Below, piece by piece: positions 3,672 through 55,122 of a DNA stretch of 63,515 nt. The notes beneath the pieces are model-generated. The model did no database searches. It saw nothing but the letters and a program-made list of their open reading frames with translations, and had not been told where the DNA came from. Both the position numbers and the translations under genes were made by a program. The stretch comes from Thermoplasmatota archaeon (lineage in GTDB: Archaea; Thermoplasmatota; SW-10-69-26; JACQPN01; JAIVGT01), in the NCBI GenBank assembly GCA_035541015.1, contig DATLFM010000035.1, forward strand, positions 1-63,515, written 5' to 3'. Every line of letters begins with the position of its first letter. Positions within the stretch are counted from its first letter, which is position 1.

Positions 3672-3700
3672 TCCGAACGAAGGTGCGGGCGTGCCCGTAA

Positions 3701-3720: not shown

Positions 3721-3727
3721 TGTTTGA

Positions 3728-5176: not shown

Positions 5177-5198
5177 GAAACGACCGAAACCGTCCGGA

Positions 5199-5240: not shown

Positions 5241-5317
5241 TTCCCGCTCCGTCACGCCCAGCGTTTGCACGATCGACCGCAACCCCCAAGTAGGTCGCTT
5301 GCCTTGGACGCCCTGGC

Positions 5318-7786: not shown

Positions 7787-7841
7787 CTCGCTTTTGAATG
7801 TGGTATTTAAGGTTTTCTCGTGAGAGCGGCGCTCGGTCGCC

Positions 7842-7849
7842 TTTATATA
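7842..7849 (+). promoter_or_regulatory. TATA box (TTTATATA) heading the giant-protein operon
   Basis: Canonical archaeal TATA octamer in an AT-rich spacer. It starts 37 nt upstream of ATG 7879, so the transcript would be nearly leaderless. A second weaker TATTTAAG lies at 7804-7811. Confidence 0.6.
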
Positions 7850-7878
7850 CTTTCCATTGCCTGCGCCCTGTGCCTCGG

Positions 7879-10800
7879 ATGGTCAAAACTTTTAATAGCG
7901 AACAGACGGAGCCTGGGGCGGCTCCGACGGAGTTGGGAGGAACTCGGTCGAAGCGGGCTGACAGGGTGGGAGTTGAGTTCCCCGTGGGGGAAGCGGTCGA
8001 AGGCACAGAACCCTTCCGAGGACACGTTGGCGTGTTCCTTCTCGTTGCGTTGGCAGCCCTCGCGCTGCTCGTCCTTCTGATCGTCGGCTCGGCGCAGGCC
8101 GGGCACGCCCCCGCCGTTTCGAACGTGACCGCCATGGAATTCCTCGTGAACCAGGCCGCGACGATGCACGTCGTCGTCACGAACGTCCAAAACGACGGCG
8201 GTGCGCCGCCGCTTGGCCTCAACGAGACGACGGTGTTCGCTCCGCCGGGCATCCACTTCAGCACGGTGGGCCAGGAGCACCAAGGACCCTCCGGCTGGAG
8301 CGTTTCGGCGCGCTCGGACCGGGTGCGGTTTTCCGCCCCCGTCGGAAGCTCGGGGCTTGCAGGCGGCCAATCGACCACGCTTGCGCTTCGTGTCGCCCAC
8401 ATCGACGCGCGCCCCCAGGACGGAACGGCCAATCTCACGATCGAGACGCAAAGCCCCGCCCTCGACCGCATCCGGTCGGACCTCCCGCTCTCGCTGCGCG
8501 TCCTTTCCGCCACCCTCTTGGTCGTCGAGCCGGCCGGTGCGCGCGACCTCGTGGCCTCCAACGGCACGACGGTGACCCTGCGTCTGGCCGTGAAGAGCCA
8601 CGCGTCCGTGGCCCTGTCCTCGGTGCAGGCGAACCTCACGGTGCGCATGAGCGACCGCTTCATCGACAACACGACGTCGCCCGTCCCCGTCGCGGCGGCG
8701 ATTGCGCCCAACGACACGGTCTTCTTCTCCTTCAACCTCAGGCTCGACCCCCGCAACGGCACGCGCGCCCTCGTGGGATCGGCCTTCCAGGGCAACGCCA
8801 CGACCGGACCCTTCAACGGCACGCTTGCGCTGCACGTCGTCTCGCCGGCCGTCCTTCGCCTTCCCGCCAACAACGCCTCCAACACGACCTGGCAGGCCAT
8901 CAGCAACGGCACGCTTCCGGACGTGCAACGGGCCACGGACCTTTGGGTCCGGCTGGAGAACCCCGGCGACGCCGACGTCGTGCTCGGGGCGCCGCGGCTT
9001 CGGCTCCTGCGCGCCGGCGCCGGCGGCAGCGAGGATCTAAGCGACCGCTTCACGATCCAGCGGATCGACACCACCGACCGCGTTGCGGGCCGGAGCAACG
9101 TCACGCTGCTCTGGAACGTGACCGCGCTGCGGACGCTTGCCTTCGAGGGCGAGATCGACGCCGAGCTGCGGGTGCCCTGGGGCGACGCAAACCTGGACCT
9201 CACGCCCAACACGCTTGCGCCCGCGCCGCTGCGCGGCGTGTTCCTCGCGGACCTCTCGCCTCCGCGCGTCACGAGCCTCTCGGTCCTGCCGTCAGGCCAG
9301 GCGTGGACCGTCGACGGCAACAACGTGACGATCTACGCCACGTTCGACGACGTGTCGCGCGACCGCGGCTTTGTCGCCTACGCCAACGTCTCGAGGACCT
9401 TCCACAACGGGACGGTCTGGGAAACGGGCCCCATGAACCGGACGGGGGACCTCTTCTGGTTCAACTTCTCCACGAACCTCACCTTCCTCAACGCGACGTT
9501 CCTGCCCTCGCGCTTTGACGCCTCGTTCCCGAACCACACGGAGTTCGTGGGCGCCTGGAACGCCCGCGTGGAGGGCGTCGACGGAGCGGGCTTCCGCGCC
9601 TTCTCGGAGATGGCAAGCTTCCACATCCAGGACGGAGTCCCGCCGCAGATCGCCAACGTCAACGTCACGCCGCGGACGCAGCCGCACGTGCCCGGCACGA
9701 CCGTCAACCTCTCGGCGGAGGTCTTCGACAACATCCGCGTCGCCGCCGTTCGCGCCACCGTCACGCGAAGCGTCCCCTCCGAGCCCGAGCCCATCGTCGT
9801 CCTCGACGACGCGCCCATGCGCCCCCTTGCGGTCGACGCAAACCAGGGCGGCACCTACACGCTCGTGGCCCCGTTCCCGCCGGGCGAGCTCACCCTTCGC
9901 GTGACCGCCGTGGACGGGTCGGGCACGTCCAACCTGAGCGCGCCCTTCTCTTTCTCGATCGTCGACACGAACCCGCCTTCGATCGGGCGCGTCCGCCTCG
10001 ACGGCGTCGAGCGCCTGGCCGCAAGCTCCACCCGCACGATCCACCTCACGGTCGAGGCCTCCGACGACGACGCCGTGCATCACGTGGACATCGTCGTTCG
10101 CGACCTCCACACGCGGCGCTCCGTGGCCGTCGACGCAAACGCGACGCTGCGCGCCGACGGCACCTACGTGACGCGGCTCTCCCGCGGCGAGGGCAGCGTC
10201 TTCGAGCGGCGCGGCCCGCTTCCGCTTCCCGAAGGAAGCTACGAGATCCAGGCGACCGCTTTCGACTGGAACCTCAACGCCCGAAGCTCCCCCCCCGCGG
10301 GCGACTGGCAACTGTTCGTCGACAACACGCCGCCGCGCCGCCCGGAGCTCATCGCGCCCGCCGACGGCGCCATTCTCACGGCGCGGCCGACCCTGTCCTG
10401 GACGCACGTGGGCGGCCTCGATCGGGAGGCAACGGACGGCTACCACGTGATGCTCGACACGACCCCCGAGGGGGGCTCGCCAAACGCCCGCCGGATGGAG
10501 GTGCGAGGCGCAACCGAGGTCGCGGTGGACCTTCCCGACGGGATCTGGCACTGGCGGGTCGTCGCCTTCGACCTCGCGGGCAACGAGAACGCGACGGGCG
10601 TGCGCTCCTTCACGATCGACTCGAGCGCGCCGGTCCTTCGCACCCGGCCGGCCTCCGGGGGCTTCGTGCGGACGGGCGGCTCGGTCGTGGTCGAGGCGCA
10701 GGACCTCACGCTCTCCCGGCTCACCGTGACAAGCGGCGGCGTCGTCCTGTACAGCGGCCAGGAGCCGCTTGTCACGGTCGACACCCTGACCTGGACCTCG

Positions 10801-11538
10801 GGCCGGCGCACGATCGAGATCGACGCGGTCGACGAGGCCGGCAACGCGGCGCGACAGGTCGCCGAGTTCCAGATCGACAACCAGCCGCCTCGCACGAGCC
10901 TGGCCACGCCGCCGCGCGCGGTCGCCTCCCCGCTTTCGATTCCGCTGACGGCCTCTGACGACCGCAGCGGCGTGCGCGCCGTGTGGGTCTCCGTGAACGG
11001 TAGCGCGTTTGCGCCCCTGGAGCTCCTGCATCTCAACCAAAGCGGCCGCTACGAGGTTTCCTACTACGCGGAGGACGGCGCCGGCAACGCCGAGGCGCCT
11101 CGCAACTTCACGGTGGTCGTCGACTTCGACGCTCCCCGTCTCGAGCCGCCCGCCGGAGGCCGGCCTTCGCGCGCGGCCGTCGGCGAGCCGTTTGCGATCG
11201 CCGTCCGCGCCACGGACCTCTCGCTGCGCGAGGTGACCGCCCGCGTGACGGTGGACGGCCGCGAGGTCGCGCGACTGGTCCTCCAACCCGAGGGCCGAAC
11301 GGGCGTGCACTCCGCCTCCTACGCGCCCACGCGCGAAGGCCTCCACCAAATCCGGCTCGAGGCGACCGACGAAGCCGGCAACGTGGGGACGCAGACCTTC
11401 GAGGTGTCCGTGGGCAACCCGCTGTGGACGCTGCTTGCCGTGGGAGCGCTTGCGGGAGCGGTCGCCATCGTGGCGCTTGCCGTCTGGGCGCGCCGGCGCC
11501 GGCTGCGCGAGGAGGAAGAGGAGGAGCTTTCCCGATGA
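7879..11538 (+). CDS. Surface glycoprotein candidate (1219 aa): Ig/Fn3-like module array, C-terminal TM, poly-Arg then poly-Glu tail
   Basis: The ATG at 7879 was chosen over the ORF-track start 7798 because of the TATA position. An N-terminal TM/signal-anchor GVFLLVALAALALLVLLIVGSAQA is present. 31 of about 55 Asn residues sit in N-x-S/T sequons (my count). There are several D-x-AGN modules. It ends LWTLLAVGALAGAVAIVALAVWARRRRLREEEEEELSR*. Confidence 0.75.
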   Translation: MVKTFNSEQTEPGAAPTELGGTRSKRADRVGVEFPVGEAVEGTEPFRGHVGVFLLVALAALALLVLLIVGSAQAGHAPAVSNVTAMEFLVNQAATMHVVVTNVQNDGGAPPLGLNETTVFAPPGIHFSTVGQEHQGPSGWSVSARSDRVRFSAPVGSSGLAGGQSTTLALRVAHIDARPQDGTANLTIETQSPALDRIRSDLPLSLRVLSATLLVVEPAGARDLVASNGTTVTLRLAVKSHASVALSSVQANLTVRMSDRFIDNTTSPVPVAAAIAPNDTVFFSFNLRLDPRNGTRALVGSAFQGNATTGPFNGTLALHVVSPAVLRLPANNASNTTWQAISNGTLPDVQRATDLWVRLENPGDADVVLGAPRLRLLRAGAGGSEDLSDRFTIQRIDTTDRVAGRSNVTLLWNVTALRTLAFEGEIDAELRVPWGDANLDLTPNTLAPAPLRGVFLADLSPPRVTSLSVLPSGQAWTVDGNNVTIYATFDDVSRDRGFVAYANVSRTFHNGTVWETGPMNRTGDLFWFNFSTNLTFLNATFLPSRFDASFPNHTEFVGAWNARVEGVDGAGFRAFSEMASFHIQDGVPPQIANVNVTPRTQPHVPGTTVNLSAEVFDNIRVAAVRATVTRSVPSEPEPIVVLDDAPMRPLAVDANQGGTYTLVAPFPPGELTLRVTAVDGSGTSNLSAPFSFSIVDTNPPSIGRVRLDGVERLAASSTRTIHLTVEASDDDAVHHVDIVVRDLHTRRSVAVDANATLRADGTYVTRLSRGEGSVFERRGPLPLPEGSYEIQATAFDWNLNARSSPPAGDWQLFVDNTPPRRPELIAPADGAILTARPTLSWTHVGGLDREATDGYHVMLDTTPEGGSPNARRMEVRGATEVAVDLPDGIWHWRVVAFDLAGNENATGVRSFTIDSSAPVLRTRPASGGFVRTGGSVVVEAQDLTLSRLTVTSGGVVLYSGQEPLVTVDTLTWTSGRRTIEIDAVDEAGNAARQVAEFQIDNQPPRTSLATPPRAVASPLSIPLTASDDRSGVRAVWVSVNGSAFAPLELLHLNQSGRYEVSYYAEDGAGNAEAPRNFTVVVDFDAPRLEPPAGGRPSRAAVGEPFAIAVRATDLSLREVTARVTVDGREVARLVLQPEGRTGVHSASYAPTREGLHQIRLEATDEAGNVGTQTFEVSVGNPLWTLLAVGALAGAVAIVALAVWARRRRLREEEEEELSR
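11518..11526 (+). promoter_or_regulatory. SD-like GAGGAGGAG for ATG 11535
   Basis: Formed by the poly-Glu (GAG) codons of the upstream tail. GGAGG at 11520-11524 lies 10 nt before the ATG. Confidence 0.45.
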
Positions 11539-14500
11539 ACCTCGTGGTCCTCGCCCCCCTCGCCCTCGCGCTTGTTCTGCTGGCGGCCGGCTGCGCGCTT
11601 GCGTCGCACGCCTCCGACGCGCGCCTCTCGAACGTCGAGGGCGCAAGGAGCACGCCCGCCGGTTGGTTCGCCGGAAACCCTGCGGCGCTTTCGCACACCT
11701 TCGTCGTGCACAACAACGCCTCCTCAACGCACGGCATCGTCCGCGTGACGATCTCCGTCCCTCGCATCCAGGGATTGCCGCCCTTGGAGATCACGGGCGC
11801 GGAAAGCGACTGGGCGGTGACCGTCTGGTCGCAGGAGTTCGACGGCCGCAACGATACGGTCCAGTTCACGGCACCCTTTGGGCTGCGCATCGCGCCGGGA
11901 GGCCACAAGAACTTCACCGTCGGGGCAACCACGCAGCGCGAAGGCGGCTTCGCCTGGTCGGTCTTCACGCGCGACGACGCACTCGACCCGGAGGAGAACG
12001 CCGCCGCCGTGCGCCTGCCGGGAACGCTCGTCTCCGGGCTCGACGTTTCGGCGCCGGCGGTCACCATCCTGCAACCGCCGCCGGGCGCCAGCGTCAACGT
12101 CGACGTGCTCAACGTTTCCGGCGTCGTGCACGACAGTCCGGGCGTGGGCGTGCAAGGTTCGGGCGTGGTCGACGCGCGGCTGCGCCTTGAGAGCGTCTCC
12201 AGCGGGGCCGTGGTCGCGGAGCGCAACCTCACGCTTGCGGCCGACGGGTCGTGGAACGTTTCCATCAACGCCACCTTCGCGCAGGGCGAGTATCGGCTTC
12301 GCGTGAACGCGACCGACGCCGTCGGCAACGCGGCGCTGCGCACGCAGGCCTGGACGCTCGACCGCGCGCGTCCCTCCTCGCGGTTCACGACGCCCGAATG
12401 GATCACGGGGAGCGAGGCCGTGCTGGCGTGGAGCGCCTCCGGAGCCGGGCCGTCGGCCACCTTCCGCCTCTTCGAGTTCCAAGGCGAGGACCCTGCGCCG
12501 CTTGCCGGCCTCGCCTGGGCCCTTTGGCGCAACGAAACCCTCGACGCCGGCAACACGAGCCGCTTCCCGACGCTTGCGATCGACGCCTTCGGACGCCCGC
12601 ATGCCGCTTGGTCCCGGCCCGAGGGTCTCCGCTACGCGCGCGACGACGGCGCCGGGTGGGTCGCGTCGCCCGTTCCCGTGGAGGGCCTGGCACGCGCGCC
12701 CCGCCTGGCCGTGGACGCGGCGGGGCGCCCCCACCTGTGCCACCGCACGGAGGAGGCGGCAGGCGGCGATCCTCGGCTTGAGTACACCCAATGGAACGGG
12801 ACGGCCTGGCGCACGGAGCGCGTGGCCGACGAGGGCGCCCGTTGCGACATCCGGCTTTCCGTCGACGGCGCGGTCACGATCCTCTTCACCAACACCAGCA
12901 GCGGCAACCTGACCGTGGCCGTCCGGGGAACCGCCGGGTGGACGCTTTCGACCCTTGATTGCTGCGACCTCACGGGCGCGCTTGCCGTGGCGCCCGACGG
13001 CACGGCGCACGTGGCCTACCGCAAGGGCGACCTTCGCCACGCCGTCGGGAACGCCTCCGGCGGGTGGGCGACCGCGCCCGTCGACGCCACCTCCGGCAAC
13101 GCGAGCCTCGCCGTGGACTCGCACGGGCGCCCGCACCTTGTCTACCGCACGCCCGACGGGATCTTGCGCCTCGCGCGCCACAACGGCACGGCCTGGACGC
13201 TCCTGACGGTCGAGCGCGACACGTCGGCGAGCCTTCGCGCCGCCATCGCGATCGACGCTCAAAACCGCCCCCACGTCGCGTTCCGCGAGGTCGTCTCGGG
13301 CGACCCGGACGCGGCACACACGGGTCTTCTGCGCTACGCGACGACCCGCGCGGACGGAACGTTCTCGGTCGGCGACGTGGAAGACGGCGCGTTTGCCAAC
13401 CTCACGCTTGCGATCGATGGGCACGGCCGCCCGCGCATCCTCGTCGTGCGCGACGCAGGTTCCCAGGGCGGGCGTGTGCAGGCCCTCGAGCCCCACGCGA
13501 CCTCGCAGACGTCGCTTCGCCTGATCGACCTTCGCCACGGGGACGACCGCCGCTTCCGCGTGATCGCCACGGACGCGGCCGGCAACGAGGAGATCAAGAG
13601 CGGACCCTTCGACCCGGCCAAGGGAGACCTCCGCCTGCGCGTCGACCAGGCCGCCCCCACGATCGAGCGCGTCACCCTCTCGCCGCTCTCGGTCCGTCCC
13701 GGCGCCACGGTCCGCCTCTCGCTTGCCGCCGGCGATTCCGGCGCGGGTCTTGCCAGCCTCGCGCTTCGCATCGTCCGCGTGGGGGCCCTGGATCGCGTGA
13801 TGCTCCAAACGCCCGTTGCCGTGGCCGCCGACGGCTCGGCAAGCCACGCGTGGAACACGACGGGCGTGCCGGAAGGCGAGTATGCGTTCGAGCTTGTCGC
13901 CCACGACCTCGCCGGAAACCGGAACGCCACGGTCGTTCCCTCCCGCGTCGACGTCGACGCGTCGGTCACGACCGCCGTGGCGCTCGATCCGCTGTACGCG
14001 GGGGGCCTGCGCGCGCTTGCCCCCGGCCGCGCGGTGCTCCTTCGCGTCGAGGCCTTCGACCGCAACGGAATCGCCTCGGTCGTCGCCAACGCCTCCGCGT
14101 TGGACCGCTCGGCCGTCGCCCTGGCGCTGCGGGACGACGGCGCGGACGACGTCCAGGCCGGCGACGGGGTCTATTCGGCGCGCGTCGTGGCCGGCCACGT
14201 GCCCGACGGGGCGTACCTCCTTCCCGTCCGCGTAACCGACGGCATGGGCAACGAGCGCACGGTCCGCGTGCGCGTCGTCGTGGCGACGACGCCGCCCTCG
14301 CTCGTCGCCCTGGGGCCCTTTGGGACCGCCGGCAGCCCCTTCGTGATCGAGCTTGCCGCCTCCTCCCCGGCGGGCATCGACGTCGCGAGCTTCTCCGTGC
14401 GCCTCGACGGCGAGGAGGCCGGGGAGAGCTTCGCCGTTCGGGTGGACGGACCAAACGTGACGTTCCGCAGCGAGCCCATCGCGCAGGCCGAGCGCATCCA

Positions 14501-40392: not shown

Positions 40393-40395
40393 GCG

Positions 40396-44481: not shown

Positions 44482-47400
44482 GGCGGGCCAAGGGCTTGGC
44501 CCTTGCCCGCCATGCGAGGAGCCTCGCGCTTGCGCTGGCGCTCTCCCTCGTCCTCACGCTGGGGGCCCTCGGCCTTGCCGCGCTGTCGGCCATGGACGCG
44601 CGGCCGGTGGCCGGCCACGATCCGGGCGTGCGCGGCGAGACCGTGATCCCGCTCGAGGACACGATCGGCGACGGTCTGGCCGACGTGGACGAGATCTTCC
44701 GCTACGGAACGAATCCGCAGCGCATCGACACGGCCGGCGACGGCATCCCCGACGGCTGGAAGGTCGCCTGGCAGGGATGCGACGCCGCGGGCTTCTGCCG
44801 CCCCGATCCCCTCCGCGCCGACGCGGGCGACCGCCTGTCGGGACCCGAGGGCATGACAAGCCTCGAGAAGTACGAGTGGACGCGGCAAAACCTCGTCGAG
44901 CCCGCGGAGGCGGCCTGCCAGTGCAAGCTGCGCGGCGAGGCTCTCATGGACCTGTTCCGCCGCGGGCTTGATCCCTGGAAGCTCTCCACGGTCGACGACG
45001 GCATCCCGGACACCTACAAGATCCGGTACGGCCTGGATCCGCTGGACCCGGAGCTTGCGGAGAAGGACCCCGTCGGCAAGGGCATGACGATCCGCGAGCA
45101 GGCCCGCCACGGCCTGGACCCCTTCCGGCTCGACACCTCCAACAACGGGCTGTCGGACTACGAGGCCATCCACGTCTACCGCACCGACCCCACGAAGTTC
45201 TCGACCGTGAACGACGGCATTCCCGACGGGTGGAAGGTCCGCTACGGGCTCGACCCGCTCGATCCGCTCCTCGCGTGGGCGGACCCCTCCGGCACGGGCG
45301 CCACGATCCTCGAGGAGTATCGCTTCAACCTGCCCCAAGGCTGGACGGAGCGCGACGGCGTCTGGTGGAACGGCACGAATCCCATGCTCGCCGACACGGG
45401 CGGCGACGGCTTGGGGGACGATTTTGCCGCCCGCTTCGGCGTTCAGCCCCGCCAGCTCGCCTGCCCGCCGCCGGCGGCGCCGCAGGCCCGCTGCCCGAAC
45501 TCCCGCTACGATCCGACGCAGCACCACCCGGGCGCCGACCCGACGGGCACGGGCCTTACGCTGAAGATCGCCTACGAGCAGAAGCTCGGGCCGTTCCGGC
45601 AGAGCGTGGACCCCTTCCGATCCGACGCCGATGGCGACGAGATCCTCACGATCGAGGAGGTCCAAGGGTACGACATCGTGGTCAACGGGCGCAGCGCGCG
45701 CGTCTTCTCGAATCCCAACGTTTTCGACACGGCCGGCGACGGCCTTGGCGACAAGCGAAAGCGCGAGCTTGGCCTCTCGCCGATCACTTCGGACACGGAC
45801 GGCGACGGGCTGCCCGACCGCCTCGAGATCGACCTTGGGACCGACGCGCTCAAGGAGGATTCCGCCGGCGATGGCCTGCTCGACGGCGAGCGGTACGAGT
45901 ACCTTCGCGTGCGGCACGCGCAGGAGATCGCCCGCCTCGAGGGCGGCAACCGGACGTTCGTCGATCGCCTGCGCGCCTTGGACGACGCGTACGCAAGCCT
46001 CGACGACCGCGGCTTGCTGGACCTGCTGGGACCCAACGCCACGCTGCGGCCCTCCGCCACGGACCGCAAGAACATGCTCGAGCCCGACTGGGACGGCGAC
46101 GGGCTCGTGAACGGGCAGGAGGTCAAGCCCGACACGGGCCTCATCCCGATTCCCCCGACCACCTGCCCGGACGCGCAGGGGCGCACGGGTCCGCGGTCCC
46201 CCATCGATCCCATGCTCTCCGACACCTCGGGCGACGGCCTTCGCGACGGATGGAAGGTCGCCAACGCCTGCTGGGTCCCGTCGCTTGGAGGCTGGGACCT
46301 CGACGCCTCGAAGTACGACAGCGACGGAAGCGGCGTCTCCGACGGGGAGAAGAACTTCATGAACGACGGGATCCACTTCTACGATCCCAACCGCGGCGCG
46401 CTCCAGTACGTTCCCTTCCACAACCTGCGCAACCAGCAGTACGGAACGAACCCGCACCTTCTGGACTCCTCGGGCGATGGCCTCTCGGACGGGTACGAGG
46501 CGCTCTGGACGGAGCGCAAGCCCGAGGGCGCGCCCGACGGATGGCGGCTCGATCCCACGAAGGCGGACACGTTTGTGGGCGATCCCCTGTACTGCCCGAC
46601 CGCGGATCCCTGCCGCGACGGCGACCGCGACTTCCTCGAGGGGATCGAACCCGTGCGGATCCACAACCGGACCGCCACGACGGCCGGCAACGTCGTGTGC
46701 GACCTCGTGTCGCTCAACGTGACCCAACGCCACGCCGCGCGGGTGAGTCCGTTCCATCCGCAGACGCTTGCCGACGGCGTGCCCGACGCCTACAAGATCG
46801 CCTACGCCCTCGATCCGCTGGACGCCGACCTCGTGCGCGCGCGGCTCGACGGCGACGCGCACGGCCTCACGCTCCTGCAGAAGTGGCAGGTCTCGCAGCT
46901 GGGGCTGGGCCCGCCAGGCTGCGGCGCCCATCCCCTCGAATCGGACACCGACGGAGGGGGCATCCCCGACGCGCTCGAGCTCTCGCTTGGCTTGAACCCG
47001 CTGGACCCGGGGGACGACGATCCCACGGGCGATCCCACGAACTCGGGCCTCACCACGCGGGCCAAGATCGCGCTTGGGCTTGATCCCTTCACTCGGGACT
47101 CGTCGGGCAACGGCCTCATCGACGGCGGCTTTGGGCGGTTTGGGTTCACCGACGAGATGATCCTCGACATCGTCGACGGCCGCGACGTCGTGATCCCCAA
47201 TCCGAACACGCGCCGTTGCCCGCAGGCGGACCCGGTCCTTTGCCCGGCCGGCTCGTACAACGACCTTGACATCAAGGACCCCTCGCAGTGGGACAGCGCC
47301 GGCGACGGCCTCCCCGACGACTGGAAGATCGCGTACGGGCTCACGCCGGTGGGCGAGCGCTATGCGCATCTCCGCGCACCCGACGGGCTCACCTACCTTC

Positions 47401-50400
47401 AGAAGTACCGCTGGGGAATGCCGGCCGACTGGAACCTCCAGCCCGACGGCACGTTCGACTACCGCAAGGACGGCACGTGGTGGGGGGGCCTCCACCCGCA
47501 GGATGCGCGCACCGACGGTCGCACGTTTGATCCCGACCAGCGCGACCTCGACCACGACGGGCTCGACGACTTCAACGGGGAGGATCCGTTTCCCGTCGAC
47601 GACCAGGACAACGACGGGACCTGGGACACCACGGCGCCCTGGGACTCCGGCGGGCCCTGGTGCTCCAACGACGCCGTCGTGAGCCGCGGCGGGAACCCGA
47701 GCGACCTCTGGACGCGGGGCATCCGCTACGGAAACTGCCTGGACCGCTACCCCAAGCGGCTCTCCTTGCACACCGACGCCGACCGAAACGGCATCCCCGA
47801 CTGGCAGGACCGCGTCGCGATGTCGGTGACCGCCACGGCGCCCGAGGGCAACCTCGTGAGCAAGGCCTCGCCCTTTGTGGTCTCGGCCCGCGTGACCTGC
47901 GCGGCCACGAACGATCGCGCGCGCCGCGAATGCGCCGCCGTCGGGGCCCCCGTCGCGGGGGTCCCCGTGCTCGTGAGCCTCGACGATCGGGCCCTGGCCG
48001 CGGGCCCGGACGCCTACGCCCCCGACGGCCGGGGGCTCACGAACCTGCTTGGCGCGGGCTTCACCGACGCCGACGGCCGCGTGCAGATCGTCGCAAGCTT
48101 CGGGCGCAACTCGGTCGTCGTGCCCGCGGGTCTCACGCTTGCCGGGCGGACGGGCGAGCTCGCCTGGACGTACGCGCGGACGATCCCCGCCGGCCCGGGG
48201 CATCATCTCCTCGTCTGGGTCCCCAACACGACGGCCGCCCCCGGCGGCCCGCCCCCTCTTTCGGGCGCGACGGCGTCCTTTGCCGTGCAGGTCCATTCGA
48301 CCTCCCACTTCCTGCTGGACTCGAGTCCGACGGTGGAGAACGAGCGTCCGCTTGTCGTGGCCGCGCGCCTCGTCGATTCGACGCAGTCGCCGCTGGCCAA
48401 CCGCAACGTGACCCTTGCGTGGATGGGAACGACCGTCGTGCGCACGACCGACGGTGCGGGCGCCTTCAACGCCACGCTGCCCACGCCCGACCGCGAGCCC
48501 GGAGCGTACCCGCTTGTCCTGAGCTTCGCCTCGAGCGAGGCCCTCCTCGTCTCGAACCAGACGGCGCAGCCGATCCGCGTGCAGTATCCAACGCGATTCT
48601 CGGGCCTGCAGGTCGTTCCCGCGCTGCCCGCCACGGGCGAGCGGATCACCGCCTCGGCCGCGCTTCTGGACTACCGCGGCGAGCCGCTTCCCGGGCGGAC
48701 GGTCGTCCTGCTGCTCGCGGGGGCCGAGGTTGCAAACGCGACGACCGACGACAACGGGACCTTCGCGCTCTCCTACGTCCTGCCCCGCACCGTGGCCGCG
48801 GGCCTGCACAACCTCACGGTGCGCTTCGCCGGCGAGCCTGCCGCCGAGGACGCGCGCCTGTACCGCGAGGTCGCCGCGTACCCGGGCTTGAGCGTTCGCC
48901 GCGCCACCGCGATGTCCCTGCGGGACTTCCACGTGTTCCGCGGCGCCGGCGCGGCCGTCGTCAACGGGACGCTCCTCGACGAGAACGGCGAGCCGTTTGC
49001 GTGCAACGTCGCGATCGTCCTCGGGGGCCTCCATCGCGCCACGGCCGAATGCGACGCGCGCGGCCAGTTCCGCGCGACGATCCCGCACAGCGCGCTTGCG
49101 CGGCAGGTCGGCGCGGTGCCTCTGGTCGCCGAGTTCGTGGGGACGCCCTTCCACCGGGAGAGCCGCGCCGTCTCCACGATGTTCATCCAGGGGCTGCCGC
49201 ACGTCGCGCTCTCCGTGGGCGACGCGCAGCGGCAGCGGCCCTACTTCCTCAACGGGACGGTCCTCGACGACGCGGGCCAGCCGATCCGCGGGCAGGCCGT
49301 CGTGGCGACCTTCGCGGGAGCGCCCCTGCCCCCCGCGCCCACCGACGCCGACGGGCGGTTCTCGATCCGCTTCCTCGTCCCCCGCGAGACGCTCCTTGGC
49401 ACGGCCGTCGTGACCGCCCGGCTCTCGCCCACGCCCGCCTACGCCGACGGCGAGATCGCCACGGCAAGCGTGCGGGTGCTTGCCGCCACGGTGCTCACCT
49501 TGCCCGAGCGGGGATTGTTCCGCGGCGACGCCGTGCTCGCCGGACGGCTCCTCGACGACCTGGGCCGGCCCGTGACGGGCGCGCGCGTGAGCCTGTTCCT
49601 CGAGAACCGCACGCACGAGGTCGCCACCGCGCTCGACGGCGGGTTCTCCCTATCGGTGAACCTCCCCTCGTCGCGCGCCGCAGGACCGCTTTCCGCGCTC
49701 GCGCGGTTCGGGGGCTTTGGCGACTACGCTTCGACCCAGGTCGCCTCCACGTACTCCGTCCTCGGGCGCGCGAGCTTTGCCGACTTTGTCGTCGGCAACC
49801 TCGCCGCCGGCCGCGAGAACCCCGTGTCCGGGCGGCTTGCGCAGGAGAACGGGGCCCCCGTCCCCGCCGGCCAAGTGCGCATCCGCGTGGACGGCGCGGA
49901 CATGGTCGCCCTGCCCGTCGCGGCTTCGGGGACCTTCGCTGGAGCGCTTGCCCTGCCCGCGTCCTTCCCCGCCGGATCGCACCTCCTGGAGGCCACCTAC
50001 GAGGGCGCGTTCATGACGGAGGCGCGCCTTGCCCGCAGCGTGCGAGTGCTCGTGCCCGTGGAGCTCTCCGCCGTGGTCGAATCCGAGTCGCTTGCGCCCG
50101 GGCAGGCGTTCCGCACGCAGATCCTCCTGCGCGAGGCGGCCTCCGGGGCGCCCGTCCAGGGCCGCGTCGGCGTCGGCTTGGCCTATCGCAACGCGACGGT
50201 GAACCTCACGGTCTTCACGGACGCCCAAGGGCGCGCCTCGTTCTCGACCGTGTTCCAGGAGGGTCTCACGCTCACGATGCGCTACGGCGGCGACGATGCG
50301 CGCGCGCCCGAGACCACCGTGGTCGCCCTGCAGCGCACCCACGCGCTCGTTCCGGGGGGGCTCACGGGCCTCGTCGCGCTCCTGGGCGCGCTTGCAGCCG

Positions 50401-50807
50401 TCCTGCTTGGCGTGGCCTACCTCGTCGCCCGTCGCGAGCGCGCGCGCGTCGAGGAGGCCCGCGCCATCGTGGAGTGGCTCGAGGGCCGCCTGCGGGCCGG
50501 CGACGAGGCCGCCGCGGTCGTCATCGCCGCCCACGCGCGGCTCGTCGAGCACTTCGCCCGCCACGGCGTGCTGGCCAAGGAGGCCGCCACGGCGCGCGAG
50601 GTCGCGCAGGCCGCCACGGAGAGCCTGGCCATCCATCCCGACCGCATGAGCGGCTTCACGGAGCTCTTCGAGCGCGCGCGGTACTCGGGCCGGCCCATCG
50701 AGGACCCGGACAAGGCGCGCGCCTTGCGGCTTCTGCGCGGCATCCTCGACGATCTCGACTTCGCGCTTGGCCGGCGGCTTGGCACCTCCGCGCGGGGGAC
50801 GCCATGA
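44478..50807 (+). CDS. Giant bitopic protein (2109 aa): signal peptide, ~22 thrombospondin-type-3-like Ca-binding repeats, ~8 CarboxypepD_reg-like beta-sandwiches, one TM helix, C-terminal DUF4129-like domain
   Basis: ATG 44478 overlaps the upstream TGA (ATGA); the ORF-track start 43908 lies inside the previous gene. TSP3-like units (DTAGDGIPDGWK, TVDDGIPDTYKIRYGLDPLDP, DTDGDGLPDRLE and others) span about 44650-47830. Units of the form G..V.v.l.g......TDa.G.f....lP span about 47830-50290. The TM helix LTGLVALLGALAAVLLGVAYLVA lies at about 50361-50432. The DUF4129-like end contains FTELFERARYSGRPIEDPD. Confidence 0.8.
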   Translation: MRRAKGLALARHARSLALALALSLVLTLGALGLAALSAMDARPVAGHDPGVRGETVIPLEDTIGDGLADVDEIFRYGTNPQRIDTAGDGIPDGWKVAWQGCDAAGFCRPDPLRADAGDRLSGPEGMTSLEKYEWTRQNLVEPAEAACQCKLRGEALMDLFRRGLDPWKLSTVDDGIPDTYKIRYGLDPLDPELAEKDPVGKGMTIREQARHGLDPFRLDTSNNGLSDYEAIHVYRTDPTKFSTVNDGIPDGWKVRYGLDPLDPLLAWADPSGTGATILEEYRFNLPQGWTERDGVWWNGTNPMLADTGGDGLGDDFAARFGVQPRQLACPPPAAPQARCPNSRYDPTQHHPGADPTGTGLTLKIAYEQKLGPFRQSVDPFRSDADGDEILTIEEVQGYDIVVNGRSARVFSNPNVFDTAGDGLGDKRKRELGLSPITSDTDGDGLPDRLEIDLGTDALKEDSAGDGLLDGERYEYLRVRHAQEIARLEGGNRTFVDRLRALDDAYASLDDRGLLDLLGPNATLRPSATDRKNMLEPDWDGDGLVNGQEVKPDTGLIPIPPTTCPDAQGRTGPRSPIDPMLSDTSGDGLRDGWKVANACWVPSLGGWDLDASKYDSDGSGVSDGEKNFMNDGIHFYDPNRGALQYVPFHNLRNQQYGTNPHLLDSSGDGLSDGYEALWTERKPEGAPDGWRLDPTKADTFVGDPLYCPTADPCRDGDRDFLEGIEPVRIHNRTATTAGNVVCDLVSLNVTQRHAARVSPFHPQTLADGVPDAYKIAYALDPLDADLVRARLDGDAHGLTLLQKWQVSQLGLGPPGCGAHPLESDTDGGGIPDALELSLGLNPLDPGDDDPTGDPTNSGLTTRAKIALGLDPFTRDSSGNGLIDGGFGRFGFTDEMILDIVDGRDVVIPNPNTRRCPQADPVLCPAGSYNDLDIKDPSQWDSAGDGLPDDWKIAYGLTPVGERYAHLRAPDGLTYLQKYRWGMPADWNLQPDGTFDYRKDGTWWGGLHPQDARTDGRTFDPDQRDLDHDGLDDFNGEDPFPVDDQDNDGTWDTTAPWDSGGPWCSNDAVVSRGGNPSDLWTRGIRYGNCLDRYPKRLSLHTDADRNGIPDWQDRVAMSVTATAPEGNLVSKASPFVVSARVTCAATNDRARRECAAVGAPVAGVPVLVSLDDRALAAGPDAYAPDGRGLTNLLGAGFTDADGRVQIVASFGRNSVVVPAGLTLAGRTGELAWTYARTIPAGPGHHLLVWVPNTTAAPGGPPPLSGATASFAVQVHSTSHFLLDSSPTVENERPLVVAARLVDSTQSPLANRNVTLAWMGTTVVRTTDGAGAFNATLPTPDREPGAYPLVLSFASSEALLVSNQTAQPIRVQYPTRFSGLQVVPALPATGERITASAALLDYRGEPLPGRTVVLLLAGAEVANATTDDNGTFALSYVLPRTVAAGLHNLTVRFAGEPAAEDARLYREVAAYPGLSVRRATAMSLRDFHVFRGAGAAVVNGTLLDENGEPFACNVAIVLGGLHRATAECDARGQFRATIPHSALARQVGAVPLVAEFVGTPFHRESRAVSTMFIQGLPHVALSVGDAQRQRPYFLNGTVLDDAGQPIRGQAVVATFAGAPLPPAPTDADGRFSIRFLVPRETLLGTAVVTARLSPTPAYADGEIATASVRVLAATVLTLPERGLFRGDAVLAGRLLDDLGRPVTGARVSLFLENRTHEVATALDGGFSLSVNLPSSRAAGPLSALARFGGFGDYASTQVASTYSVLGRASFADFVVGNLAAGRENPVSGRLAQENGAPVPAGQVRIRVDGADMVALPVAASGTFAGALALPASFPAGSHLLEATYEGAFMTEARLARSVRVLVPVELSAVVESESLAPGQAFRTQILLREAASGAPVQGRVGVGLAYRNATVNLTVFTDAQGRASFSTVFQEGLTLTMRYGGDDARAPETTVVALQRTHALVPGGLTGLVALLGALAAVLLGVAYLVARRERARVEEARAIVEWLEGRLRAGDEAAAVVIAAHARLVEHFARHGVLAKEAATAREVAQAATESLAIHPDRMSGFTELFERARYSGRPIEDPDKARALRLLRGILDDLDFALGRRLGTSARGTP

Positions 50808-52036
50808 AGCGCCCCCGCTTCGCCCGGGCGCCCGGCGGAGGCCGCTTTCCACGCGTCCCCTGGGCGGCGCTTGCCGTCGCCGTGGCGCTTGCCGCCGTCG
50901 TCTCCACGCTTGCCCTCTCGCTTGTGCCCACCTCCGGTCGCACGCCCTACGGCGACGGCTGGGACGACCTCTCGGAATTCCGCTCGGTCGTCCAGGGCGA
51001 GCAGTACGCCTTCGGCACGGTGTACGCTTCCCCGCTTCTCCTGAAGGACGTGCCCGACCCGTCGCGGACGCTCTACGTCGTCGCCGGCGCCGAGCGTTCC
51101 TACTCGGAGGAGGAGGCCCTGGCCGTGGTCGACTTCTTCCTGCGCGGCGGACGCCTGCTCGTCCTGGAGGACACGGGCAGCGCAAACCAGGTCTCGCTTC
51201 GCCTGGGCGTGCAGTTCGACGGCGTGCGCCTCTGGGACTCCGCCTTCGACGGCACGCGCGACACGGCGTACGTTCGCGTCCAGATCCGGCTCGAGAAGGG
51301 CGCGCACGACATCCTCACGAACCTTCCCACGAGCCTTCGCGTGCTCGAGCGCGCGCCCGCGGGCGTTCGGCTCGACACGATCGGGGAGAGCACGCGCCAC
51401 AGCTACATCGAGCAGGACGGGGCGGAGGGGATCACCGAGGGCGACCTTCCGGGGCCCTTTGCCGTGGCCGTCGTCCTCGAGCACGAGGCCTCCGGCGGGC
51501 GCGCGCTGTTCCTTGGCGACTCCCACGTGATCGCCAACGCCCTGCTGCTCGAGTCGAGCAACCGGCGGTTTGTGGCCGGCGTCCTCTCGGAGCTCCTTCC
51601 AAGCGGCGGAACCGTCCTCCTCGACGCCTCGCGCCTCTCGCACGGCGGGGCTGGGCTTCGCGAGCTTGTCGCAAGCGCGGTCGCTTCCGTGCGCTGGCCC
51701 GTCCTTGGGCTTGTGCCCGTGGGCGCCGCGCTTGTGGCCCTGGCCGCCTTCGCCGGCCTGCGACGGACGCAGGCCGCGCGGGACGCGCCCTTGTTCGACC
51801 ACCGATTCGCGCCCGACGCGCCGCGCAACCCGCCGGAGAGCCCTTCGGCCTTCCGTGACCGCCTCGCCCGGGCGGCCGCGGCCAAGCTCGGCTTGCCCCG
51901 GCTCCCCGACGATCCCGAGACGCTGCGCGCGGCCGTGCCCGATCCTGCGCTCGCGCGCGCGCTTGCGGCGCCCGAGGCGCCGGCGCGGGAGACCTGGCCG
52001 GACCTCGTCGATCGGCTGCGGAGGCTGCGCGGATGA
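50804..52036 (+). CDS. DUF4350-like membrane protein (410 aa)
   Basis: ATG 50804 overlaps the upstream TGA (ATGA). The architecture is an N-terminal TM (VPWAALAVAVALAAVVSTLALSLV), a ~280-aa extracytoplasmic domain, a second TM (WPVLGLVPVGAALVALAAFAGL) and a Pro/Ala-rich tail. This layout, together with its position next to DUF58 and MoxR, matches DUF4350. The family call is by architecture and context only. Confidence 0.6.
   Translation: MKRPRFARAPGGGRFPRVPWAALAVAVALAAVVSTLALSLVPTSGRTPYGDGWDDLSEFRSVVQGEQYAFGTVYASPLLLKDVPDPSRTLYVVAGAERSYSEEEALAVVDFFLRGGRLLVLEDTGSANQVSLRLGVQFDGVRLWDSAFDGTRDTAYVRVQIRLEKGAHDILTNLPTSLRVLERAPAGVRLDTIGESTRHSYIEQDGAEGITEGDLPGPFAVAVVLEHEASGGRALFLGDSHVIANALLLESSNRRFVAGVLSELLPSGGTVLLDASRLSHGGAGLRELVASAVASVRWPVLGLVPVGAALVALAAFAGLRRTQAARDAPLFDHRFAPDAPRNPPESPSAFRDRLARAAAAKLGLPRLPDDPETLRAAVPDPALARALAAPEAPARETWPDLVDRLRRLRG
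52020..52024 (+). promoter_or_regulatory. SD GGAGG for ATG 52033
   Basis: Lies inside CGG-AGG-CTG (R-R-L) of the upstream gene, 8 nt before the ATG. Confidence 0.5.
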
Positions 52037-53262
52037 TCACCGCGAAGGGACGCGCGTACCTCGCCGGGGGCGTCCTTGCGCTTCTGGCCGGCGTCGTGGC
52101 CGGCTCGGCCGCGCTTGCCGCCGCGGGCGTCCTTTTCCTCTCCGCGCTTCTCGTGGCCGGCCTGCTGCGGCGCGACCTCTCGATCTCCGTGCGACGCTCC
52201 GTCCAACCCCAGCGCCTGCGCGAGGGCGAATGGGTCGACGTGGACCTCGCGGTCGCCAACTCCGGCACGACCGCCGGCTTCCTCGAGGTGGCCGAGACGC
52301 TCTCCGAGCGGCTCGAGCTCTCCGGCAAGGCGCGCGAGATGCTCGCGCTTCGGCCCCGCGAGACGGCGGCGCTGCGCTACCGTCTGCGCGCGCACGTCAA
52401 GGGCGTGTACTCGGTGGGGCCGCTTGCCTACCGTGTCGAGGACGTCTTTGGCCTTTTCGCCGAGGACCTCCAACACCCGGAGGAGGCGTACTTCACGGCC
52501 ATCCCCGGCTCCGATGACGCGGAGGTCGAGGCCAAGAGCCGCATCCCGAAGGGATACCTTGGCGAGCACATCGTGCGGTCGCCCGGCCAGGGCATGGAGT
52601 TCTTCGGCCTTCGCGAGTACGTCCGCAGCGATCCCCTCAAGGAGGTCAACTGGAAGGCCTCCGCCCGCGCGGGCGAGCTCATCGTGAACCAGCGCGAGCG
52701 CGAGAGCATCACCGACGTGGCCGTCTTCTACGACTGCCGGGCCGCCTCCGGTCGCGGCACGGCCACCGTGAACGGCAACGTGCTTGGGGCGCGCGCCGTC
52801 GCCTCGATGCTCGAGATCCTGCTCGCCCGGCGCGACCGCATGAAGTTCGTCTCCTACGGCCCCCGCGTGGACGTCGTCCAGCCGGACACCGGCGACCGCA
52901 TGCGGCACAAGGTCCTCAACCTCCTCTCCGCGCTCGAGCCCGCGGGCGACACGCGCCTCCTCCAGGCGGTCGAGGCCGTGCTTCCCACGCTCTCGCGGCA
53001 GACCCCCGTCATCGTGGTCTCCAACCTCGAGGAGGACGCAAGCGTCGTGGAGGCCGTCTCGCGGCTTCGCGCGCGCGAGCTCAACGTCCTTGTCCTCTCG
53101 CCGCGCGCGCACTTCCCCACCGCGGACGCAAGCGTGGTCGAGCTTGCCGCCGCCGAGCGCGCGGCCGTCGTGGCGGCGCTCCGGGCCGCCGGCGCGCGCG
53201 TGCTCGACTGGGACCCGCAGGCGAGCTTCTCGATCGCCATGGCCAAGGGGGCGCTCCTGTGA
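52033..53262 (+). CDS. DUF58 family protein (409 aa)
   Basis: ATG 52033 overlaps the upstream TGA (ATGA). Two N-terminal TM helices are present. The DUF58 signature is GEHIVRSPGQGMEFFGLREYVRSDPLKEVNWKASARAGELIVNQRE. Confidence 0.8.
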   Translation: MITAKGRAYLAGGVLALLAGVVAGSAALAAAGVLFLSALLVAGLLRRDLSISVRRSVQPQRLREGEWVDVDLAVANSGTTAGFLEVAETLSERLELSGKAREMLALRPRETAALRYRLRAHVKGVYSVGPLAYRVEDVFGLFAEDLQHPEEAYFTAIPGSDDAEVEAKSRIPKGYLGEHIVRSPGQGMEFFGLREYVRSDPLKEVNWKASARAGELIVNQRERESITDVAVFYDCRAASGRGTATVNGNVLGARAVASMLEILLARRDRMKFVSYGPRVDVVQPDTGDRMRHKVLNLLSALEPAGDTRLLQAVEAVLPTLSRQTPVIVVSNLEEDASVVEAVSRLRARELNVLVLSPRAHFPTADASVVELAAAERAAVVAALRAAGARVLDWDPQASFSIAMAKGALL

Positions 53263-53771
53263 CCGTTCTCGCGTGGGGGGCGCTTCTTGCCGTGGCCGCG
53301 CTTGCGGTCCTCGACTCGCGCGTGGGCCCCCTTGCGCCCGGCGCCGCGGCGGGGGCGGCCCTTCTCCTGCACGCGCTCTCCGCCTCGCGCGCAAGCCTTC
53401 GCCTGCCGGCCATCGTGGCCGCCGCCGCCACGGGCGTCTTCCTCCTGCCGCAGGTCTCGCTGGCGGGCCTGGCGTGGGCCGCGTCGCTCTTCCTCTACGT
53501 CGAGTTCTCGACCTCCGGCGCGCGCCTGGCGCGCTGGGGCGAGGCCATCGTCGCGCGCTACCGGCGCGCGCTCGTAGGCCCCCTTGCGATGGCGTTTGCG
53601 CTTGCCCTTGCCGCCGTGCTTTTCCATCGCGCCCTCGCCTTCCTGCTGCCCCCGGCGCTTGGCGAAAGCCTCGAGCTTGCAAGCTCCTTTGGCATCGCGG
53701 CCGGGGCCATTCTCGTCCTTGGCGTGGCCTTGATCGCGGCCCGCTGGCGGGAACGGCTCCTTGCGGCCTAA
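53259..53771 (+). CDS. Small polytopic membrane protein (170 aa, about 5 TM)
   Basis: GTG 53259 overlaps the upstream TGA (GTGA). The sequence is almost entirely hydrophobic, Ala/Leu-rich helices. No family recognised. Confidence 0.6.
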   Translation: MTVLAWGALLAVAALAVLDSRVGPLAPGAAAGAALLLHALSASRASLRLPAIVAAAATGVFLLPQVSLAGLAWAASLFLYVEFSTSGARLARWGEAIVARYRRALVGPLAMAFALALAAVLFHRALAFLLPPALGESLELASSFGIAAGAILVLGVALIAARWRERLLAA

Positions 53772-53816
53772 GAGCGCCCGACGGGGCGCGAATCCGAGCC
53801 TCCCCCGCCATACGAC

Positions 53817-53823
53817 TTATATA
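53817..53823 (+). promoter_or_regulatory. TATA box (TTATATA) for the MoxR gene
   Basis: The only AT-rich element in the 81-nt spacer. It starts 36 nt upstream of ATG 53853, giving a near-leaderless start. Confidence 0.55.
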
Positions 53824-54900: not shown

Positions 54901-55122
54901 ATGATCATTCATCGCAGACGGGTCCGTTGGAAAACGCCGCTATCGGGAATTTTTATTTCCTGCAAAATATGGTTTGCCAAAGTACTTCTCGGGCCACCGC
55001 GTTTGCGGCGATGCCCACGGAACCCATCCCCCCAGCACCCGCTTGTTTCCCCGGTTGCGTGGGCTCCAACTCCCCGCCCAAATCGAAAGGAAGAAGCCCG
55101 GCCCAGGCTAGCACGGCCTGGC

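Follow-up and report, generated by a model that had tools for sequence, protein, structure and literature searches.

A 46-kb run of overlapping cistrons for giant putative surface proteins and a membrane module in an uncultured Thermoplasmatota archaeon

Results

Structure of the nine-cistron run

The stretch of DNA analysed here, called the window throughout, is the 63,515-nucleotide (nt) contig DATLFM010000035.1 (assembly GCA_035541015.1) of a Thermoplasmatota archaeon, and all coordinates are window positions. It carries a run of nine same-strand (+) cistrons, c1 to c9, extending from 7879 to 53771, which we interpret, with a probability of roughly 60%, as a conserved super-operon for the cell envelope, encoding six giant membrane-anchored surface proteins and a membrane module; the archaeon is uncultured and high in GC. 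The run is a real feature and its junctions are of an ordinary type; what is noteworthy is its scale, its conservation and the double role of the arginine-rich protein tails, whose codons also form Shine-Dalgarno (SD) motifs.

Six of the eight junctions are ATGA stop-start overlaps (at 11535, 15155, 26848, 44478, 50804 and 52033), one is a GTGA overlap (53259) and one, between c4 and c5, reads TAG-gcg-ATG (40390-40398), giving seven spacings of -4 and one of +3; the last stop codon ends at 53771. The products of 1219, 1207, 3898, 4514, 1361, 2109, 410, 409 and 170 amino acids (aa) sum to 15,297 aa, or 1,633 kDa. An initial annotation of this DNA had drawn the run with the same TATA box, starts, overlaps and final stop, and had put the products at about 15,300 aa; every one of these positions was found again in the sequence. 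Six of the 50 ATGA tetramers that the + strand of the window contains are junctions. Spacings of -4 make up 7/8 junctions of the run, compared with 354 of 2,511 unidirectional gene pairs (~14%) in Haloferax volcanii (Huber et al.; PMC6728339, PMC10666635), and the pattern exceeds chance. The annotation had also called the arrangement unusual for archaeal operons, which holds for the length of the run and the size of its cistrons and fails for the junction type, as the -4 overlap is the commonest archaeal spacing (Huber et al., 2019, 2023).

SD motifs encoded in arginine-rich tails

A GGAGG motif starts within -16 to -8 of five of the eight internal start codons, compared with 2.1% of background positions. 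The motif lies at -13 for c3 (15142-15146), c4 (26835-26839), c6 (44465-44469) and c8 (52020-52024), at -15 for c2 and at -20/-17 for c5, where the sequence GGAGGAGG is found at 40376-40383. There was no SD motif at c1 or at the downstream gene for a MoxR-type ATPase. The GGAGG motifs fall where the upstream genes encode the Arg-rich C-termini of their products; the c2 tail, for example, is written CGC CGG AGG TGG TCC GCA TGA, which gives RRRWSA and the stop codon. AGG is a rare codon in this run, accounting for 22 of 1,163 Arg codons (1.9%) in the bodies of the nine cistrons and for 6/25 in their last ten codons (Fisher p = 1.3e-5 against the bodies). All the tails ahead of a coupled start that were compared (c2, c3, c4, c5, c7 and the flanking gene X) use CGG-AGG or AGG-AGG. 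The window also supplies an internal control, since equally Arg-rich tails with no coupled gene downstream (c9 and the flanking genes up1 and up3) use CGG, CGC and CGT only. Because AGG is enriched in the tails that precede coupled starts and not in the three control tails, the SD motifs are selected and not incidental.

Transcription signals

The window was scanned for AT-rich words and for oligo-T, with synonymous-codon shuffles as the control. Only a handful of AT-rich 8-mers occur in the whole window. One of them, TTTATATA (7842-7849, +), is a candidate archaeal TATA box for the run and lies 37 nt before the ATG of c1 at 7879; another, CTTATATA (53816-53823, +), is a candidate TATA box for the MoxR gene and is also found 37 nt before its ATG. 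This identical spacing makes the TATA box that the annotation had placed at 7842 plausible. Since both genes have the box at the same distance and neither has an SD motif, the geometry suggests promoters of leaderless or short-leader mRNAs in this organism.

Sense-strand T4 runs are depleted within the run (12, against 29.1 ± 5.3 in the shuffles), as are T5 runs (0, against 5.1 ± 2.2), while A-runs are not. No run of five or more T residues occurs between a T10 tract at 5230, after the upstream gene up2, and a T5 tract at 54950, after MoxR. Archaeal RNA polymerase terminates at oligo-T, and the depletion fits avoidance of termination signals, on the assumption that termination in this organism uses oligo-T as in other archaea. 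AT-rich 8-mers are also depleted in the run (2, against 7.5 expected from the shuffles).

Products of the run

c1 (7879-11538, 1219 aa; start uncertain, with an alternative GTG at 8032) has an N-terminal transmembrane (TM) anchor, Big_13, PKD and OmpL47-type barrel domains, and a C-terminal TM segment with an RRRR tail. c2 (11535-15158, 1207 aa) has a signal peptide, Big_13, BNR-like and OmpL47-type barrel domains, and ends in LPGLE, a TM segment and RRRW. c3 (15155-26851, 3898 aa, 415 kDa) is mostly dark to Pfam, with Big_7, Big_13 and fn3 domains near its C-terminus and a tail of LPAFE, TM and RRRW. The largest product, c4 (26848-40392, 4514 aa, 488 kDa), has a signal peptide and MAM-like domains followed by CARDB, NPCBM_assoc and CARDB, and a tail of LPGFE, TM and RRRK. 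About 3,000 aa each of c3 and c4 gave no Pfam match, and a homolog search with the first 1500 aa of c4 returned nothing. c5 (40396-44481, 1361 aa; orthologs P0005-P0007) carries a signal peptide, choice-of-anchor-T-like and NPCBM_assoc domains, and a tail of LPGPE, TM and RRSRG. In c1-c5 the recognizable domains are of the Ig-like, beta-sandwich kind and cluster near the C-terminus, the long remaining stretches being mostly without annotation; N-glycosylation sequons are numerous.

c6 (44478-50807, 2109 aa) begins with an N-terminal TM segment and continues with ~13 TSP3-like Ca-binding repeats at aa 60-1000 (window 44650-47500), of the form D-[ST]-x-G-D-G-[IL]-P-D-x-W-K...L-D-P-L-D-P, which is TSP3-like or dockerin-like. 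After the repeats come Big and CarboxypepD_reg domains, a TM segment at aa 1965-1983 and a cytoplasmic DUF4129 domain at aa 2020-2087. The repeat has more than 10,000 matches in a representative library, many of them in other proteins of 2,000-6,500 aa. A Transglut_core domain, which DUF4129 usually follows, had no match in any cistron. PDB sequence searches with c3, c4 and the N-terminal part of c6 gave generic fn3 (titin) and CARDB matches or none, and a single-sequence AlphaFold2 model of c6 residues 51-700 had a mean predicted local distance difference test score (pLDDT) of 36.7.

The three remaining products are smaller. c7 (50804-52036, 410 aa) is a DUF4350 protein (arCOG01314, GldG-like; PF14258, 40.3 bits with a cut-off of 30.4) with TM segments at aa 23-41 and 300-318. 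c8 (52033-53262, 409 aa) is a DUF58 protein with immunoglobulin (Ig)-like and vWA domains (PF01882, 52.2 bits with a cut-off of 23.4) and an N-terminal hydrophobic stretch seemingly long enough for two helices; a homolog search with it gave two distant matches only. The canonical metal-ion-dependent adhesion site (MIDAS) of a vWA domain has the motif DxSxS. At the expected site c8 reads D-C-R-A-A. The Asp and, two residues on, an Arg are all that c8 and its relatives in the alignments retain there; their vWA domains may lack canonical metal binding. c9 (53259-53771, 170 aa) is a polytopic membrane protein with no family match, and has a counterpart after the DUF58 gene in related loci. Domain searches found no toxin, peptidase or nuclease domain in any cistron, and none of the products is an enzyme.

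C-terminal tails

The tails of c2-c5 consist of LPGFE, LPAFE, LPGLE or LPGPE, then a hydrophobic helix and then a basic cluster. This tripartite C-terminus of signature motif, TM helix and basic cluster was read directly from c2-c5 and from the upstream genes up1 and up3, and the c1 tail has the helix and basic cluster without the PGF-like motif. Among the weak matches of the tails to curated models the best was to Heimdall-CTERM, at 17.4 with a cut-off of 24. No archaeosortase gene is encoded in the 63.5-kb contig. Export of c1-c6 and their anchoring in the membrane are predicted from these features.

Coding sequence and assembly support

The window has a GC content of ~70%, and long spurious open reading frames (ORFs) are for that reason plentiful on both strands. 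The nine cistrons are nevertheless real coding sequence. GC content at the third codon position (GC3) is 0.85-0.93 in frame, and codon position 3 has the highest GC in 135/135 sliding 600-nt windows of c1-c6. Synonymous changes account for 14 of the 17 single-nucleotide polymorphisms (SNPs) that separate the window from independent assemblies, and the only indel is an in-frame one of 3 nt. The indel, at 16778-16780, falls within a CCT repeat (GTCCTCCTCCTCCT) of c3. Seven synonymous SNPs between the window and the ENA contig are packed into 40 nt of c3 (20713-20752) with identical flanking kilobases, a cluster suggestive of recombination or gene conversion between strains over a short tract.

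A second assembly (ENA) covers window 1535-18669 with contig L169 and 18938-63262 with contigs L083/L001, and its c4 protein is identical. The initial annotation had advised that read support across 15-40 kb be checked for chimeras from repeat collapse. Self and cross comparison by blastp found no internal repeats and no paralogy between c3 and c4, which disposes of repeat collapse; the frame and the GC3 phase also stay intact throughout this interval. The ENA assembly does break within c3, its contigs ending at 18669 and resuming at 18938; this gap is bridged by the window contig only, in which frame and GC3 phase are undisturbed. In related organisms, c3-like and c4-like genes of 3099-4285 aa are contiguous, the c3-like gene coding for 3330 aa.

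A Logan assembly of SRR8438988 differs at one place. In its contig L002 (8393-8478), window 50306-50499 is replaced by 50367-50451 in inverted orientation, and sequence on either side has been deleted at short inverted repeats; with 134 nt lost, c6 and c7 become one ORF of 2474 aa. The inversion is probably an artefact of assembly or library preparation, and may be a real inversion variant.

Conservation in related loci

Orthologous loci were found by three routes, using MoxR, a DUF58 alignment, and homologs of c5 and c6. Junctions were counted in nine loci: the window, L084, L164, L167, L170, L171, L172, L173 and L011. Spacings of -4 account for 34/42 junctions, and a strong SD-like pentamer is present at 28. 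Protein identity between the window and the related loci is 24-41%, and since both linkage and -4 overlaps persist at this distance, gene set and junction style are conserved. The comparison of junctions that the initial annotation had proposed was thus favourable to it, and the -4 spacing is kept even in the permuted L167.

L084 has c6-c7-c8-c9 with three ATGA overlaps, each after GGAGG, and L164 has a c4-like gene (4027 aa) followed by c5 and c6. In L171 the order is c4-like (3099 aa)-c5-c6-MoxR-DUF58-c9, and in L172 and L173 it is c4-like (3377 and 3628 aa)-c5-c6-DUF4350-MoxR, with the order DUF4350-MoxR-DUF58. L170 has a c4-like gene and c5, then two opposite-strand genes, then c6, a 310-aa gene, MoxR, DUF58 and genes for 147 and 915 aa. 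L167 is permuted, with c6, a DUF4350+DUF58 fusion, c9, c5, a c3-like gene (3330 aa) and a c4-like gene (4285 aa), all at -4. L011 consists of DUF4350-MoxR-DUF58, a membrane protein and two Ig-like anchored proteins of 1.2 thousand aa. The fused protein in L167 (7105-9363, ~750 aa) supports a direct physical interaction of c7 with c8.

From these comparisons the conserved core appears to be c4/c5/c6/DUF4350/(MoxR)/DUF58/c9, and c4-like, c5-like and c6-like genes are linked to DUF4350, MoxR and DUF58 in 7/7 loci long enough to show it. Orthologs of c1 and c2 were absent from the related stretches available and c3 is shared in its C-terminus only; c1-c3 look accessory. MoxR lies inside the chain in L011, L170, L171, L172 and L173, and has moved out of it in the window and apparently in L084. 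A scan of metagenomes with a four-sequence DUF58 alignment returned mostly generic bacterial MoxR-DUF58 pairs, which are uninformative on the giants.

Flanking genes and host

The MoxR-type AAA+ ATPase gene (53853-54857, +, 334 aa; AAA_3, 210 bits, and AAA_lid_2, with PGLAKS and LLADE motifs) starts 82 nt past c9, outside the run, with its TATA box in between. No oligo-T separates c9 from MoxR, and the T5 run after MoxR is at 54950-54954. MoxR is the presumed partner of c8. The next gene, ACT-ACT-HAD phosphoserine-phosphatase-like, is a 490-aa ORF from 54901 in the window and 406 aa (start 55153) in the ENA contig; the 406-aa model is more likely, because the T5 run at 54950 and AT-rich elements lie between the two starts.

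Upstream of the run there are further genes for surface proteins. Gene X (1-1083, +, at least 361 aa) is truncated 5' by the window edge and was recognized by its GC3 phase and its C-terminal anchor, a TM segment with WRRRAA. It joins up1 by a GTGA overlap preceded by GGAGGAGG, read as AGG-AGG codons; the true start of up1 is therefore GTG 1080 (826 aa), as also called on L169, and not that of a 1132-aa ORF from 162. As the anchored gene X runs off the 5' edge and is coupled to up1, the island of surface-protein genes reaches beyond the window. up1 (1080-3560, +) is a Big_13/Big_7 surface protein with an LPGFD, TM and RRK tail, and is a paralog (51% identity) of up3 (5318-7786, +, 822 aa), identified by domain searches and its tail as a Big_13/Big_7/OmpL47-type-barrel surface protein with a C-terminal anchor. 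Between these anchored paralogs lies up2 (3728-5176, +, 482 aa), which has its own SD-led start and a T10 terminator after it (5230-5239); its product is secreted, acidic (pI 4.2) and Cys-rich (3.7%), matches nothing in Pfam or NCBIfam and lacks a C-terminal anchor. Judged from T4 tracts after the gene and the lack of an AGG codon in its tail, up3 is a separate transcription unit.

The origin of the DNA from an archaeon, as the annotation had assumed, is borne out by an Rpb7-Spt4-DUF359-S24e-S27ae cluster downstream of the run and by the nearest relatives. The closest MoxR homologs (65-75%) come from metagenome-assembled genomes (MAGs) of high-GC uncultured Thermoplasmatota/"Thermoplasmatales", followed by Poseidoniales at ~60%, and the c6-family proteins carry NCBI names from Thermoplasmatota/Thermoplasmata MAGs. 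A haloarchaeal origin was rejected, as the pI is ~5, D+E amount to only ~11% and the relatives are Thermoplasmatota. A non-ribosomal peptide synthetase/polyketide synthase cluster of a high-GC bacterium, a guess from ORF size and 70% GC, was also rejected, there being no such domains and an archaeal context. Transfer RNA and Rfam scans of the window found nothing.

Discussion

A model for expression and assembly

The data can be joined in the following model. Transcription would start from the TATA box at 7842 and continue for ~46 kb without oligo-T terminators, perhaps reinforced by a promoter at ~15.2 kb. Each of c2-c9 would be translated by termination-reinitiation at its -4 (or +3) junction, aided by GGAGG ~13 nt upstream. 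c1-c6 would be exported and anchored through their C-terminal tails, one membrane-tethered mRNA would supply all subunits to the same membrane patch, and the subunits might form a large surface complex serving as a coat, an adhesion apparatus or a secretion apparatus. The cytoplasmic pair of MoxR and the vWA protein c8 would assemble or remodel this complex by acting on the DUF4129 tail of c6 or else on c7/c9.

The initial annotation had deduced tight translational coupling, and from it fixed stoichiometry and co-translational assembly. The junctions do look built for termination-reinitiation, with -4 overlaps and selected SD motifs conserved in orthologous loci. Fixed stoichiometry does not follow, as coupling makes downstream translation dependent on upstream translation and does not thereby set the ratios. 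Co-translational assembly fares no better, since at least 8/9 products have predicted signal or anchor sequences or TM segments and any assembly would take place at or outside the membrane and not between cytoplasmic nascent chains. With nearly all products exported or membrane-inserted, co-localized insertion from one membrane-tethered mRNA would be the better description. The model can be taken further, to a single, previously uncharacterized, ~1.6-MDa envelope-spanning machine for secretion, adhesion or surface motility, specific to a Thermoplasmatota clade, composed of the nine products and MoxR and made from one ~46-kb mRNA by eight termination-reinitiation events, with the ribosome-binding sites in the Arg-rich stop-transfer tail of each preceding subunit and the mRNA as a scaffold for assembly at the membrane; we offer this full version as conjecture and think it unlikely.

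Alternative explanations

The alternative that we take most seriously, while thinking it unlikely, is that the region comprises at least two transcription units, c1-c2 being transcribed from 7842 and c3-c9 also, or only, from ~15197. The start of c3 would then be TTG 15227 or 15305, and the overlaps would reflect no more than packing and local coupling. This alternative is founded on an AT-rich patch (CGT ATT ATA AAG AAC ... GGA AAA; 15195-15220, +) that spans codons 14-22 of c3, 40 nt past the c2/c3 junction, and is a candidate internal TATA box, promoter or other 5' element. The patch is the sole AT-rich 8-mer within the run besides the first codons of c1, holds one of the two ATA codons that the 15,297 codons include, and belongs to an excess of AT-rich 12-mers in the run (2, with 0.38 expected; P about 0.04). 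Both TTG codons are in frame downstream of it. A gene caller run on L169 started c3 at 15305, behind an AGGAG motif, which would leave a 146-nt gap holding the patch, and c3 codons 1-50 have GC1/2/3 of 0.58, 0.68 and 0.74, atypical of coding sequence; the split cluster of L170 also agrees with this alternative. Yet the c2/c3 junction itself has CGG-AGG-TGG followed by ATGA, with GGAGG at -13 exactly as at c3/c4, there is no oligo-T terminator ahead of the patch, and none of the other seven junctions has an AT-rich element. An internal promoter would, moreover, supplement read-through from 7842 and not substitute for it. It is improbable that the overlaps arose neutrally from genome compaction, with ATGA as an easy way of joining stop to start, and that the proteins are independent adhesins or S-layer paralogs with no complex and no tie to MoxR. 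Overlaps of -4 are the commonest spacing everywhere, the related loci examined yielded no orthologs of c1-c3, L167 has its genes in permuted order and MoxR has its own promoter, all as neutrality would have it; neutrality does not account for a rare codon enriched specifically in tails before a coupled start, for 34/42 junctions kept at -4 across loci of 24-41% identity, rearranged ones included, or for the linkage of c4/c5/c6-like genes to DUF4350, MoxR and DUF58 in 7/7 loci.

Two further explanations appear very improbable. Were the giant ORFs chimeras of metagenome assembly or products of repeat collapse, the ENA break at 18669-18938 and the inversion and deletion in L002 that fuse c6 with c7 would be natural symptoms; such an origin is hard to reconcile with unbroken GC3 phase, the lack of internal repeats and of c3/c4 paralogy, a c4 identical in a second assembly, 14/17 synonymous SNPs, and loci from unrelated samples with contiguous genes of 3099-4285 aa in the same arrangement. 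We give as little credence to a MoxR-vWA conflict or defence system, or a polymorphic-toxin delivery system, with the giants as effectors. Giant secreted proteins are typical of contact-dependent systems, and MoxR has a weak match to PF20030 (bpMoxR) of 31 bits; this is far below its 210 bits for AAA_3, PADLOC had no matches for c6 (C-terminal part), c7, c8, c9 or MoxR, none of the cistrons has a toxin, peptidase or nuclease domain, and throughout Poseidoniales the MoxR ortholog is conserved as a single gene.

Several observations nevertheless weigh against a cell-envelope super-operon as drawn here, beginning with the patch at 15195-15220 and the alternative call of c3. At the 5' boundary, the gene caller on L169 placed the start of c1 at GTG 8032 and not at ATG 7879, and GC3 of c1 codons 1-50 is only 0.60. 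Gene callers in fact disagree on the starts of c1, c3 and c5, the last being either 40396 or 40432, and because of the patch, the alternative calls and the atypical GC3, the 5' boundary and the c2/c3 junction are the two soft spots of the run. The break of the ENA assembly inside c3 belongs with these points. A single transcript is not obligatory for function, since in L170 the giants and the module are split by two opposite-strand genes. MoxR has its own TATA box outside the coupled chain, and in Marine Group II its ortholog is in an unrelated context, flanked by aIF5B and MinD, and lacks the module. No catalytic or structural family could be recognized over most of c3, c4 and the N-terminal part of c6, and the idea of one complex derives from gene linkage only, because the structure model was unusable. 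In the case of the tails, the curated PGF-CTERM model TIGR04126 scored best with c3, at 7.5 bits with a cut-off of 24.5, and gave no match with the others.

If the super-operon reading is right, the locus would be a natural stress test of archaeal gene expression, in which ~46 kb of uninterrupted transcription is needed together with eight serial reinitiations, including two that follow ORFs of 11.7 and 13.5 kb. The AGG-encoded SD motifs inside Arg-rich membrane-anchor tails are a clear case of one sequence with two coding roles, and could improve the calling of start codons in high-GC archaeal MAGs.

Comparison with known systems

The run matches, by domain content, the neighbourhood of arCOG01314 described by Makarova, Galperin & Koonin (2015; PMC5898192), in which DUF4350 (GldG-like) is accompanied by MoxR, an Ig/vWA protein and Ig-like S-layer-type proteins. 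That neighbourhood was predicted to be a novel secretion or membrane-remodelling complex, a function that is itself prediction only, and arCOG01314 was scored as absent from Thermoplasmata (PMC5898192). Shared with it are a DUF4350 protein with a signal sequence and C-terminal TM segment (c7), an adjoining MoxR/GvpN-type AAA+ ATPase with a DUF58-type Ig+vWA protein (c8), and Ig-like S-layer-type proteins, represented here by c1-c6 with their Big_13, PKD, fn3, CARDB, NPCBM_assoc and Big_3_5 domains. In the present locus, by contrast, the Ig-like partners reach giant size (1.2-4.5 thousand aa), a TSP3-repeat/DUF4129 protein of 2109 aa always belongs to the set, and MoxR is found behind c9 under its own promoter; the membrane protein arCOG02884/pfam07760 (PF07760; 2-4 TM segments) had no match in any cistron. 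The run thus appears to be this neighbourhood enlarged with giants. The clade would represent an extreme, conserved version, in which the module is chained to five or six giant surface proteins, and this linkage points to the assembly or maintenance of very large envelope structures as the job of the module and names candidate client proteins for it.

Termination-reinitiation at -4 overlaps has been demonstrated in H. volcanii and Escherichia coli (Huber et al., 2019, 2023; PMC6728339, PMC10666635). It fails at gaps of ~20 nt or more, coupling is strict in H. volcanii, and overlapping pairs are enriched among the subunits of heteromeric complexes (PMC6728339, PMC10666635). The junctions here are alike in their ATGA/GTGA overlaps and in the SD motif inside the upstream gene. 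Those pairs, however, are of ordinary-sized genes, whereas eight successive junctions link nine cistrons over 46 kb here and coupling is read from the sequence.

The core of MoxR and DUF58 with membrane partners is also that of the mycobacterial cluster Rv3691 (DUF4350)-Rv3692 (MoxR)-Rv3693 (DUF58) and of the Bifidobacterium PFNA operon (pkb2-fn3-aaa-atp-duf58-tgm), which includes a large secreted fn3 surface protein; the mycobacterial order DUF4350-MoxR-DUF58 is that of L011, L172 and L173. The archaeal loci differ in that no transglutaminase core, kinase, SpoIIM or RDD genes were detected here, and in the giants and C-terminal sorting-like tails, which are specific to them.

With the substrates of PGF-CTERM/archaeosortase A, namely S-layer glycoproteins of haloarchaea and methanogens, the surface proteins share the tripartite tail with a Pro-Gly-Phe-like motif (LPGFE, LPGFD, LPAFE, LPGLE), large size and richness in N-glycosylation sequons; they differ in scores below the TIGR04126 cut-off, in the motif-less c1 tail and in a window free of archaeosortase genes. 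The literature search found no paper joining DUF4129 with archaea and none describing such an array of giants. Halomucin and the adhesin-like proteins of Methanobacteriales are likewise very large, secreted, Ig-like-rich archaeal envelope proteins, and are usually repeat-rich products of single genes, whereas the giants described here are non-repetitive, arrayed and tied to a MoxR/vWA module.

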